DNA of 62,820 nucleotides, counting the filler, from Globobulimina sp. (taxonomy: Eukaryota), in NCBI GenBank assembly GCA_003354225.1. It is 27 parts of 27 records of this genome, joined end to end, with 100 filler letters (N's around TTAATTAATTAA, not from the genome) between each part and the next. Parts side by side here need not be neighbours in the genome. Positions count along the whole stretch, not along the records: positions 51,278 to 53,506 come from PIVH01008039.1; 26 more parts are not named here. One strand, given 5' to 3'. Under the pieces are notes generated by a model. It was not told the DNA's origin, ran no database searches, and saw nothing but the letters and a program-made list of their open reading frames with translations. A program made the translations under genes and the position numbers. Shown here one piece after another: positions 1,035 to 55,835 of the stretch (position 1 is the stretch's first letter; each line of letters begins with the position of its first letter).

Positions 1035-2232
1035 ATGGGGAATATAGTCGATGACGTTGCTAAAAATGCTATCGGAGCTCAAATGAGCAGCAATATCGAC
1101 CCTGAATTGTATCAAAACCCACATCGCAAGCCCAAAGGACATTATCTTTCCGCCCCCAAAACTAAACCACAACCAAAACGGCCTCGATCAACTTCAAACA
1201 TCGCTCACAAATATAACTATAATTCAAAACAATCGAAACGACATCGTGATGCCAGTAGCAAACCATTCAGCAAACGCCGCGAACGCAAACGTAAACGTAA
1301 AACGTCAATCACGTCGACAGTCTCTGAAAATGATATCAAACATAGCAACCATGTCATGGATCAATTAGTATCTTTGGGCTATGGCACAGAGAAAGAAGTC
1401 ATTGCCGCCTCTGCTCTTTCATCAAACCATCGTGACATTAATCAAGTATTGAAGCAATTAGCTGTTATTCAATCAAAAACACCCATAAAATATAAGAAAC
1501 GAACTGACACGAAAAAAAATCCCAAAAAGAGTCCCAAAAAGAGTACCAACACGAATACAAATAGCAATATCGTACAAGATTCTGTGCTGGGAAACAATGA
1601 CAATTTGCTTAAAATTATAGATTGGATCAACAGTACACCCGAACCAAAACCTGTAGCATCAACATCTGAAAATAAAAAAGAGAGCGCAATATCTCCAAAA
1701 CAGGTAAAGTACTCTTCACATTTACTTCAAATCACTCGCCTTACTCACCGCTGCATGCGTACATAGGTCAGAAGCAAATCGCTATCCGACAGTTTAAACA
1801 GCCACATCTTATTAATACCGCAGCAATCGCCGTCATTCGAAGATCTACATCAAGATAAGAAGGAAATTGATGAAGAGGAGGAGGAGGAGGATAATTTCAT
1901 CTTTTCCTTGGATTTAAATGATAACCGCAAGAACTCAGACAAACCAAAATTTGATCCCTTCCCATACAGTGACAAGAATGGGTATAAATATAAACGCAAA
2001 ATGAGACTGCCGGCGCGCAACAGCATCAGTGCCACCTCAAAGACTGCGGGTTTACGCAAGATTGAAGCCTTGAAAAATGAGATTCGCGAATCTATAGAGT
2101 CCACATTAAGCGAAGTAAGTGCAGTGATTGAAGACAATCCGAATCAGAATCATAGCGATAAAAAACAAGAAGAAACTTTAATATCTATGTCGGATCCACC
2201 ATTATTACCCGCCACAACCAAGCATTTATTGT
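1035..2232 (+). CDS. Basic low-complexity protein with a UBA-like segment; 3' partial; intron 1704-1766
   Basis: VMDQLVSLGYGTEKEVIAAS resembles UBA. A GTAAAG...ACATAG intron joins the 1035 and 1908 ORFs in frame. Confidence 0.55.
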
Positions 2233-51780: not shown

Positions 51781-51902
51781 TGTTATAAATAATAATTCAT
51801 ATAAATCAAGATTGTAACATAGTAGTGCTTTAATTAATTTTAATTTTTAGATGTTTACTCAGTTGAACATGTACAAATTAAAGAGTTAGAAACATTTAAA
51901 TC

Positions 51903-52790
51903 ATGGACAACTTTTATTCATGGTTTGAAAACACAACAAAATCCTCTTTTTTAACTATAAAACCATTCAAGTATATTTTAATTCCATCAATTGGGATTTC
52001 GCTATACTTGGGTTTCAAGAAACGGACGTTTGTAAAAGCAGTAATCAACACTGGAATTGAACTCATCGTTTCATCCTTCGCAATTCCATTGGCCTATATT
52101 ATACCTGGAGTGCAAAGGAAAATTGAACGCGATTATGGTACTACATTGGATGTTAGTTTTTCTGCATTTTATTATTTAGCAAAACAAGTATGGTTCAGAT
52201 TAAAACGATCATGGAATGAAATTGAAATAAATGACTATATTTCTGATACAGTAATGGTATATACACACAATGGATATTATACCAGTTTAAATCAATTAAT
52301 ATCTCCAATCAATAGAATAAAGAAAAAGAGTCCGCCATTTACATGTTTAATATTTGGTTCTTGTTCGTGACCACCTTTTATGAGGGACTTACGCGAATTA
52401 TATGAGTTATATTGTAAATATAAACAACGATGTAATTTCATAATAATTTACGTTCAAGAAGCACATGCAGAAAATGAATGGATTTTGAAAAGAAATGTGA
52501 AAAACCATATTAATATCAAACAGCATGAAAAAATCAATGATAAATTGGATGCATGCAAAGAATTAATACGTTTGTGGTCAAAGCAAGTGGGCAGTGTTAA
52601 AACAGCCATAAATGAAAATAAATTGCAAATATTATGCGATGATATTAATGGTAATTTAGAAAAAACATTTAATGCATCTCCTGAGCGTATCGTCATTGTG
52701 GATGAAAATAAGAAAGTTGTAATGAAAGGTGGGTACGGTCCAGCTAGTTGTGATATAAATATAATTGATAAATTCTTTCAAAATGTATAG
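51903..52790 (+). CDS. Iodothyronine deiodinase-family selenoprotein (295 aa; Sec codon TGA at 52368-52370)
   Basis: In-frame read-through gives LIFGSCS-U-PPF, then IIYVQEAHAENEW and ASPERIVIVD...KGGYGP, all deiodinase signature motifs. Confidence 0.92.
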
Positions 52791-53606
52791 TAAATTCTTT
52801 CAAAATACAATTGCAATATTTAATTGAATGATTGATGTGGTGATTATGTCTGTTAAAATGGCATATGAATTTTCTTATATATCGTTTGATGGATGTTTGT
52901 GTTTGTAATGTTTGAAATCTTAAAGTTTTGAAGAAGAAACGTTTCGAAGTCACTTAAACTCAATTTGATTACATGGGTGTTTGTTTTGGCAATAAATCGG
53001 TCAATGTAAATGCTTATACTCATTCTTTTTCACCACAAAAAATCAATTATTGGTTTTTAATGATGATATTAATTGACAACAAAGATAATTTAACGTGACA
53101 TAGTTAAATGACAACATGATGATGCCATATCCGACCGATCTATACACAAATTAATATCCAGAATGAATTTGTCATTCAACAGATTTCACATAAAGCAATT
53201 TTAACAATTAATTAGTGGCATCATCTAACAACCAATTTGTCAATAATATTGATAAAAGCACAAAAACAGTCCATAGCTATATATCTGTCAATTAATACCA
53301 TCATGAAAAACATAATAAAACAAGGAAGCAACACATGCATCGAAGAAGAATGACTCAATCAAATTGGAAGAAACCCCGGCAAAACAAAAACCAAAATCAA
53401 AACCAAAATCAAAACCAAAACCAAAACCACTGCAACAAAAAGACACAACAAAAAGCCACAAACCAAACCCTAAAAAGCTGAAAAAAGCAAAAGTATTATC
53501 CAATGANNNNNNNNNNNNNNNNNNNNNNNNNNNNNNNNNNNNNNNNNNNNTTAATTAATTAANNNNNNNNNNNNNNNNNNNNNNNNNNNNNNNNNNNNNN
53601 NNNNNN

Positions 53607-54711
53607 ATTTACTTTGCTTTCAACTGTAGCTGAATGCATAGGTAACAATTCCACGGACTTCTTAGTTGTTGGTAAAATGGACGATATTATTATTACACTG
53701 TTATTAGTTTCGCCACCTTTATTTTCTGTATGTTCTGAATTTGATTTTGATTTCTCTGTACTTTCGCCAGTACTGCTTTTTTGCTCAATTCGATGCGTTT
53801 CTTTTTTTGCAAAATAGTGATGAATGCAATGGCATGATTTACGATATTGAGAATCATTAGACACAAATAATAAAAATAAGCAGACTGCACTGACAGTACA
53901 ATCAACCACAGTCCAAAATATACCTTATATAAATAGAATGTGTTTATATCCGTATACAAAGCAGAAAGTACAAACCAGCGGGATGCCATTCAGAGCGCGT
54001 AAAGCCGTATTCGACCAGAAGCCATGTACAAAATAACACGACTGACGAACCAATCGATATTGGTATCAATATGCTGGATTTTAATATAATATGAATCATA
54101 TCCGGGTCAATCGCCGTAGCAAACATCAAGGCCTCCACCCTACGTATGAATAATATGCATAATAACACTGATAAACAGAAATAGAGTGCTATCCAGATAA
54201 TGGCAATGATTTCAAAGATATACCAGAGCTCAAAAATTCGACTACTTGACACAAAGCAATAAAATAAAGTAAATATAAAGCAGACTGCACGCAATAATTT
54301 AATAACATGCGGTGGATATGCCAGCGGCGTGTGGCTGACCACGCCGTCAATGCGTAGCGTAAAAATAATAAGCATTAAGGTCTGACATCCGAGATATAAA
54401 CAAAGCGTTAATTTCGAACATATATCCACTGCATATAATCGATGATTGAAGTCAGAATAAATTAAAACCATCACTGTCGTTGCAATACTTAATATGGATG
54501 ATATCGGCAGGATAAAATTAGTCAGGGCGCTGATGATCACTATGTTGGAGGTACGCGCCGTATGTTCACGTAGATGTTGTCGAAACTTTGGAAATAACAA
54601 TATAGCCAATACAACCTGACCGATTGTTAAAACCACCATCAGTCCAACTAATAGCCAATCACTGGGATCAGCGTAAACTTTGGTATGATCTGGAAATCCA
54701 TGATGTTCCAT
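53607..54711 (-). CDS. 7TM GPCR-like membrane protein; intron 53924-53975; 3' partial
   Basis: Seven hydrophobic helices after splicing (...HPAG/IFWTVVDCTVSAVCLFLLF...YRKSCHCIH). Confidence 0.7.
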
Positions 54712-54770
54712 TTTTTTTTAGATGGGAAAATTTAAAGTGAAAAATTGTTTGATTAAAGTAACTGTAAACC

Positions 54771-55835
54771 ATGGCGCCCTCAACTCAACCTAACTTAATC
54801 CCTGATGCATTACCATTGCCTCAACCGCATCTAATGGTGGCAGCAACTCCACCATCAACACCATTTGTTGCCTTACCAGCGGGACATCATCAACCAATGC
54901 CACCACCACCAGAAATGCAATCATTAATGGACAAAACTGCAAATAAAACCGTACACTCACAAAACGCATTCGAATTTGAGGACCTAATTCGTCGAAAACA
55001 AGCGTCAAACCCTCAATTTGCATTTTTATTTCGTGGACATCCATGGAACCATTATTATGAATGGAAAAAAGTAACACTTCAACAACAATTACAAATGCAA
55101 CAAAATAAAAACAATAACAACCCCAAAGACGACAAAAACAACGAATCCAAACCAAATGAGAATGCTAAGACCGCTACATCGCAGCCAACAGACCTTCCAA
55201 ATGTTAAGCCACACAGTGCAAGGATCAATGTATGACAATATGATTCAATCTGTTTTTGTGTTTTGGTTATAACGTATACAGATCAAAGAGTTAAATGTGA
55301 TCTTATCAGAATTAAACGGCAGTAATCATAGTATAAATAGTGCGTGTAAATGGATCATTGATCATAAGGATTGTCCAAAACAGGTCTGCGATGAATTAAA
55401 ATCCTATTTCCTTACAAATCTGATGAACCACAAAGACCCAAACATATTTGATAAAAAGTTGTATATATTATTCATGATCAATGATGTTTTGCATCAAGCC
55501 TTAAAAACAAGAATATCCATTGATAAAATTGACCCATTATCGCACCATTTATCCACTATTTTATTTACTGTTTTGCCCAATGCATATCAGACATATTCAG
55601 CGCAACAACAACAAAAAGTGATGTCATTATTGAATCTATGGTCGGAACGGAGTATATTTAATATTGCATTGACACAGCAATTGAAAGATGCGATGGTTGG
55701 CGTTGGTAATGTAAACAATCAGAATAGTTCTGAACAGTCACAATCACAAACAACATATCTGACTCGCACACATATACCGCCACCACCAATAAATCCATTA
55801 AGACCACCACCTCCGCCCCATCCATACCAATGGCC
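54771..55835 (+). CDS. SURP plus CID domain splicing factor (CHERP-like); intron 55230-55281; 3' partial
   Basis: MDKTA...FEDLIRRKQASNPQFAFL...YYEWK (SURP); SINSACKWI...KLYILFMINDVL...LLNLWSERSIF (CID). Confidence 0.8.

Follow-up and report, generated by a model that had tools for sequence, protein, structure and literature searches.

The foraminifer-like protist Globobulimina sp. probably carries a genuine, expressed selenoprotein gene, encoding a membrane-anchored enzyme of the deiodinase family in which the UGA at codon 156 specifies selenocysteine (Sec). The gene lies in a window of 62,820 nucleotides, meaning the whole stretch of DNA that was analysed, taken from assembly GCA_003354225.1. 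The deiodinase-like coding sequence (CDS) is a single exon at 51903-52790 on the forward (+) strand, comprising 295 codons and a closing TAG (52788-52790). Its sole internal stop is the TGA at 52368-52370 (+), and an in-frame TAA is found upstream at 51897. The argument for Sec is built on the reading frame and the protein family, on the codon found at the same position in relatives and on contigs from public sequencing runs, and the 3' region is considered for the element expected to direct recoding.

A deiodinase-like reading frame joined by one TGA

The preliminary description of this DNA proposed that two adjacent open reading frames (ORFs) are one frame joined by a single TGA and that the family motifs downstream of it are intact, and translation agrees on both points. 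The ORFs at 51903-52370 and 52380-52790 share a common reading frame, and the read-through peptide runs ...CLIFGSCS-U-PPFMRDL... followed by IIIYVQEAHAENEW and SPERIVIVDENKKVVMKGGYGP. Alignment to the Sec position of Dio3 and Dio2 makes the TGA, codon 156 in FGSCS-U-PPF, the proposed selenocysteine codon. A scan of all six frames on both strands of the 62.8-kb window for a TGA flanked on either side by 60 or more open codons gave a single case, that at 52368-52370, with 156 + 139 codons. A TGA-joined frame of the deiodinase-like kind is thus far beyond chance. Of the 19 ORFs in the window with 200 codons or more, some of whose ends may be exon ends, 6 terminate in TGA; TGA is therefore not generally a sense codon here, and the genetic code is not reassigned.

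The read-through protein contains the thioredoxin-fold catalytic domain T4_deiodinase (PF00837) at residues 149-286 (52347-52760, +), as delimited with Pfam. Assignment to the iodothyronine-deiodinase family, made in the preliminary description together with the suggestion of a T4_deiodinase profile search, is borne out by profile, sequence and fold. The Pfam match has an E-value of 8.1e-22 and scores 78.1 bits against a cut-off of 27, covering profile positions 107-227 of 237. Among solved chains, only mouse Dio3 (4tr3, 6e-12) and Dio2 (9h48, 3e-11) were matched by sequence, and HMMER aligned the TGA codon to the Sec-to-Cys residue of both. The active-site motif FGS-x-(T/S)-(U/C)-P-P-F is present as FGSCS-[TGA]-PPF.

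An AlphaFold model was built on a 60-sequence alignment consisting of the window protein and 59 homologues chosen from the best 150 of 540. Its mean pLDDT is 81, with values of 92-98 over residues 141-295, of 89, 89, 92 and 77 in successive ten-residue blocks over residues 101-140, and low values in the N-terminal 70 residues. Foldseek placed the same two deiodinases at the top (4tr3, E 2e-12; 9h48, E 4e-12), with TM scores of 0.73 and 0.80 by target, while the next match was a generic thioredoxin-like protein at 1.5e-6, six orders of magnitude weaker. Y183, E186, H188, D246, P260, R262, G279 and P280 are nearly invariant among the 60 sequences and are present in the window protein. The conserved Tyr, Glu and His of YxxEAH, the Arg of PER and the Gly-Pro of GG.GP are residues with catalytic roles in Dio3. 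Position 214 is Lys in the window protein and Arg in at least 90% of the aligned relatives.

At the other end of the protein, the N-terminal hydrophobic segment already pointed out in the preliminary description was located at about residues 43-70 (52029-52112, +), with a Kyte-Doolittle maximum of 1.84 over 19 residues. The model places a helix at residues 40-63, with low confidence. Together, hydropathy and model suggest that residues 43-70 are a probable N-terminal membrane anchor of the deiodinase type.

Host and genomic context

The neighbouring genes are eukaryotic and encode a bleomycin-hydrolase-type peptidase C1 and proteins with Surp and CID domains. The nearest named relatives of the peptidase C1 are from Foraminifera (Nonionella at 65%, Bolivina and Elphidium), followed by the rhizarian Paulinella. 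The organism had been described beforehand as a protist, which fits both the deiodinase-like gene and its neighbours, as these are nearest to Foraminifera among named relatives. No tRNA was detected in the window with ARAGORN.

Downstream of the deiodinase-like gene, a probable next gene occupies 52973-53506 (+), with an ATG at 52973, exon 1 to 53005, an intron at 53006-53324 and exon 2 from 53325. Evidence for the splice comes from two of four public runs (X1-X4, Logan contigs of two studies), whose kind, DNA or RNA, is not on record: a GT..AG joint from 53005 to 53325 is present in X4 record 16, and a matching loose end in X2 record 7. Exon 1 consists of 11 codons (MGVCFGNKSVN), a start that resembles an N-terminal acylation motif, and exon 2 is Lys/Pro-rich and in frame. 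Because the joint ties the ATG at 52973 in frame to 53325, a separate small gene seems to start there. The 3' untranslated region (UTR) of the deiodinase-like gene would then be about 170 bases long, bounded by this ATG. Further on, a convergent gene is located at 53944-54717.

The intron of the next gene contains 26-base terminal inverted repeats (53053-53078 and 53286-53311), which are 92% identical and enclose an element of ~260 bases. Contigs of X1 break or end loosely at the borders of this element, a behaviour expected of a dispersed MITE-like repeat. Weak C/D-box snoRNA-like Rfam matches of 21-27 bits, far under the cut-offs, also fall within it (53053-53311).

The 3' region and the recoding signal

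The eukaryotic selenocysteine insertion sequence (SECIS) is defined by a UGAN/KGAW core, a helix II and an unpaired AA, as set out in PMC3753652. The element was searched for with Rfam and with a pattern scan, in which the length limits of helix II were the author's choice. Rfam gave no SECIS at the gathering score in the whole window, and none at E ≤10 in 2 kb or in the 231-base 3' region. The Rfam model is insensitive here, as among ten low-GC homologue loci it detected only L009, at 26.8 bits and under the cut-off. The pattern scan, by comparison, found a canonical SECIS 40-70 bases past the ORF in 4 of these ten loci (L009, L015, L030 and L047), and no canonical pattern in the deiodinase-like 3' UTR before the ATG of the next gene.

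The four loci with a canonical element are low-GC metagenome contigs, each with a deiodinase-like gene that has TGA at the Sec codon. Their SECIS elements are nearly identical (AUGAUGAUUUGUAUCC AAA ... GAUACAAAACUGA; at 849-918 in L009, and likewise in L015, L030 and L047), with 84% identity over 88 columns. Since a covariance model of their own would be narrower than that of Rfam, it was dropped. In two other low-GC loci, L017 and L055, the TGA of the deiodinase-like gene stands in MGSFT-U-PPF, and neither scan found a SECIS in the 1.5 kb downstream; L055 has a long perfect hairpin at 1268-1340.

Within the window, the canonical pattern gave 30 (+) and 21 (-) matches at relaxed settings and 21 at full settings. 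Its sole match in the readable bases from the stop codon to the convergent gene is at 53063/53110, inside the intron of the next gene. This match was rejected as being at chance level, given that the relaxed pattern matches about once per 2.5 kb per strand. Three further candidates were discarded. One of the 21 full-setting matches, at 52474/52539, lies within the ORF; its helix I measures 6 bp, its apical part of 43 bases is oversized, and its local fold is no better than that of its shuffles (z -0.64). The match at 55232 lies inside another gene. Finally, UGUAAU and AUUACA (52904-52909 and 52968-52973) could be paired as a helix I, and the helix II that this would enclose was unpaired on inspection by hand.

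The 3' UTR does contain a long imperfect hairpin at 52798-52917 (+), which is the best SECIS candidate, albeit a non-canonical one. It spans 120 bases, starts 8 bases past the stop codon and has a folding energy of -26.1 kcal/mol (z -2.77), with 1 of 200 shuffles folding as well. At its top (52840-52869), G-UGA-U stands opposite U-GA-A, and 6 bp of helix lead up to the loop UGUUAAAAU. This arrangement agrees with the UGAN/KGAW core as described in PMC3753652. A canonical SECIS would need a longer helix II than the 6 pairs present here, and the hairpin has no Rfam match. Repeat copies of the hairpin were not found within the window. Two variants in X1 fall in it, one for and one against the structure: G52861A turns a G-U into an A-U pair, and T52878G breaks a pair.

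A mini-hairpin pattern matched 2 places in 125 kb and was absent from 10 other homologue loci; as it was written after the hairpin had been seen, its rarity is not a fair test. A chance match to this pattern lies at 1597-1628, inside an ORF at 1035-1766 (+) that begins MGNIVDD... and contains Lys-rich stretches. A second, weak SECIS candidate is located at 52886-52947 (+), where U-UGA-U stands opposite C-GA-A and 12 of 14 positions of helix II are paired. Its AA lies 17 bases from the core and it has no helix I, and since its pattern has 108 matches in 125 kb, the candidate is compatible with chance.

Comparison with the run contigs further revealed an imperfect tandem copy of 22 bases over the stop codon (52769-52812, +). 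One of the 22-base copies, that at 52769, is missing from X1 record 1. In the single-copy version, the ending ...FFQNV-stop would be replaced by a longer C-terminus that ends at a further TGA.

It could also be argued that the gene and its Sec decoding are as proposed and that an ordinary SECIS sits unseen in a longer 3' UTR overlapping the next gene, for instance in the N stretches downstream, so that the UTR hairpin would be irrelevant. This arrangement appears unlikely. An AAUGA motif resembling a core lies at the very edge of an N stretch, and the perfectly canonical SECIS elements of other low-GC, eukaryote-like homologue contigs speak in its favour. Yet the readable bases between the next gene and the convergent gene at 53944-54717 hold no candidate, and because a separate gene with an in-frame splice seems to begin at 52973, a transcript shared by both genes would be unusual.

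Codon state among relatives

An exhaustive HMMER search retrieved 540 proteins at E ≤0.001; a word-indexed protein search with the full protein gave no relatives among entries of near or shorter length. Among the matches listed, the four best named ones (P0002-P0005) stem from foraminiferal transcripts, namely of Ammonia, Bolivina and Nonionella; these ORFs have 42-45% identity and all begin at a Met four residues past the Sec column. Conversely, the 136-residue P0089 matches residues 6-155 (E 4e-8) and terminates in ...FGSCT, and the N-terminal half is thus conserved in it. The expectation voiced in the preliminary description, that gene callers would split or truncate such a gene, is illustrated by these entries, of which the former four start after the codon and the latter ends before it.

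In 59 aligned database homologues, which are the author's choice from the best 150 of the 540, 34 have Cys in the Sec column, 11 have Trp and 1 has Ser; the remaining 13 do not cover the column, 12 because they begin downstream of it and 1 because it terminates upstream. The entries with Trp, reading NFGSCTWPPF, are P0010, P0016, P0019, P0021, P0024, P0026, P0028, P0032, P0033, P0047 and P0078. Most likely, TGA was translated as Trp by gene callers in these 11 entries, which would be a second mis-annotation beside truncation.

At the nucleotide level, the codon was read in 80 metagenome homologue loci, several of which are near-duplicates. It is TGA in 64 of them, many being high-GC bacterial contigs, TGT or TGC in 13, a stop whose codon was not printed in 2, and off the contig in 1. 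The loci were retrieved with an alignment of a closer set of sequences. Given that TGA occupies the Sec codon in most loci and that database ORFs are broken there, TGA is the rule in this family and gene callers regularly cut at it.

These observations bear on two readings in which no selenium is involved. If the TGA were a true stop, the gene would yield a 155-residue N-terminal fragment or be an inactivated copy, with its downstream half untranslated. Such a reading would account for the outcome of the Rfam search, the pattern scan and the inspection of the 3' region, none of which found a canonical SECIS. It is nevertheless highly improbable, as the 139 open codons past the TGA encode a sequence that contains all family motifs and shares 42-45% identity with proteins of foraminifera, as most homologues have TGA at the same codon and the ORFs of relatives break there too, and as this TGA is the sole stop within 295 codons of AT-rich DNA. 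Alternatively, near-cognate decoding could insert Cys or Trp at the UGA without any SECIS, giving a non-selenium enzyme. The lack of a canonical SECIS among the elements found and the existence of Cys forms (13 of the 80 loci and 34 of the 59 proteins) would be in line with it. That UGA is read in this way is barely credible, however, as TGA and not TGY is conserved across distant homologues, which is a signature of Sec; furthermore, with TGA terminating other long ORFs of the window, read-through as a general process is improbable.

Support from public sequencing runs

Contigs of all four runs contain the TGA unchanged and ungapped (X1 record 1, X2 record 6, X3 record 11 and X4 record 14), and no other letter occurs at 52368-52370 in any of their contigs. 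Reads with TGT or TGC at this codon had been named beforehand as an observation that would speak against Sec, and the contigs of the 4 runs from 2 studies all read TGA. Regarding an intron or an editing event that might remove the codon, a check of colinearity showed contigs crossing the TGA ungapped in the 4 runs of unrecorded kind, and X2 record 6 (51877-52744) aligns to the deiodinase-like CDS without gaps. Elsewhere in the CDS, the run contigs differ from the window at 7 positions, comprising 3 synonymous and 4 conservative replacements, and these seven within-species differences say little about selection. A sequencing or assembly error that turned TGT, TGC or TGG into TGA can practically be dismissed, as contigs of 4 runs from 2 studies have TGA and yet differ at 7 other CDS positions.

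The contigs of X2 and X3 are gene-shaped, in that those of the upstream gene stop at 51855 and 51862, respectively, and those of the deiodinase-like gene start at 51877 and 51881. One X1 contig crosses the boundary between the upstream gene and the deiodinase-like gene unbroken. Both the GT..AG joint in X4 and the ends of contigs in X2 and X3 weakly suggest that X2-X4 hold transcripts. Neither the gaps in coverage of the 3' region in X2 and X3 nor the unequal depth of the coding and the spliced downstream contigs is usable as evidence.

Comparison with known deiodinase-family selenoproteins

The vertebrate enzymes Dio1-3 share with the window protein the active site FGSC(T/S)-U-PPF, with a UGA-encoded Sec where the window gene has TGA, as well as the EAH, (E/D)xW and PER...GG.GP motifs, the N-terminal hydrophobic anchor and the fold. 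They differ from it in sequence, with about 20% identity over the structural alignment, and lack a helical stretch that the window protein has at around residues 211-237. In addition, its host is without a thyroid hormone system, and no canonical SECIS was found at the window gene.

The preliminary description suggested a possibly undescribed halogen pathway. This is speculation and its novelty is overstated, as Sec-type homologues of the deiodinases are known from Dictyostelium (2007; PMC2375036), from algae (PMC7539508) and from bacteria. In Dictyostelium discoideum, an amoeba that has no thyroid axis, an unexpected Sec-containing deiodinase homologue was reported in 2007 by Lobanov et al. 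(PMC2375036), and the gene is named didA (DDB_G0275741) in PMC3205185. Its SECIS is of type II, in which UGUA precedes the core, AAA is unpaired and the mini-stem is very long (PMC2375036). A null mutant of the homologue had normal DIF-1 dechlorinase activity (PMC3205185). By description, the window gene resembles this system in probably encoding a Sec-type deiodinase homologue in a free-living amoeboid protist; in contrast to the type II SECIS of Dictyostelium, no such element was found at the window gene.

Closer to Globobulimina, the ORFs of Ammonia sp., Bolivina argentea and Nonionella stella (EukProt/MMETSP), with their 42-45% identity over residues of about 160-294, were compared as protein fragments only and are, judging from sequence similarity, probably orthologues of the window gene. 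In algae, DIO is among the selenoprotein families and 80% of its members have Sec, and within Rhizaria, Bigelowiella uses Sec in 23 selenoprotein genes (PMC7539508). The algal DIO proteins, in which Sec forms predominate, thus belong to the same family as the window protein in other lineages. Four of the ten low-GC metagenome homologues differ from the window gene in having a canonical SECIS 40-70 bases past the ORF, where none was found at the window gene. A literature search on selenoproteins in Foraminifera or Reticulomyxa brought up no such paper.

Bacterial deiodinase-like selenoproteins, reportedly first described by Zhang, Fomenko and Gladyshev in 2005, share the Pfam family and the UGA position with the window gene. 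In bacteria, Sec insertion depends on a hairpin immediately 3' of the UGA, together with SelB. The window gene is set apart from the bacterial genes by being eukaryotic, with neighbours encoding Surp and CID domains and one neighbour with a spliced intron. PMC1088965 is a catalogue of microbial selenoprotein families from the Sargasso Sea, in which the term 'deiodinase-like' occurs 7 times.

Proposed function and significance

In the selenoprotein reading preferred here, the product, a member of the iodothyronine-deiodinase family, would be a membrane-anchored enzyme whose fold is of the thioredoxin/peroxiredoxin-like type. The UGA at codon 156 would be decoded as selenocysteine, which within FGSCS-U-PPF would serve as the catalytic nucleophile. 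If the analogy to Dio1-3 holds, its selenolate may attack a carbon-halogen bond or another oxidised substrate, and the enzyme may then be re-reduced by thiols. The recoding signal would be a divergent SECIS in the short 3' UTR, the best candidate being the hairpin at 52798-52917, or it may lie outside the readable sequence.

It could be speculated that the enzyme dehalogenates iodinated or brominated aromatics in an undescribed halogen pathway. The nearest relatives of the enzyme are in calcareous benthic foraminifera, a group whose shell iodine serves as a proxy for ocean oxygen. A bolder proposal would be that foraminifera decode UGA by a divergent SECIS of the kind suggested by the hairpin at 52798-52917, with the short-helix G-UGA-U / U-GA-A and an AAAA loop, and that the enzyme possibly belongs to an unexplored iodine or halogen metabolism; as a whole, this proposal has a distinctly low probability.

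The gene extends Sec-type deiodinase homologues to a foraminifer-like rhizarian and adds evidence that the deiodinase family is older than thyroid signalling, with another substrate. Public protein sets contain the gene and its foraminiferal relatives in split or truncated form, so that annotation misses the catalytic half-site. Unusual about the gene is only its 3' end, where a short UTR with a long, significantly stable hairpin is found instead of a recognisable canonical SECIS. If the SECIS elements of foraminifera are divergent, surveys of the selenoproteome in this group would undercount.
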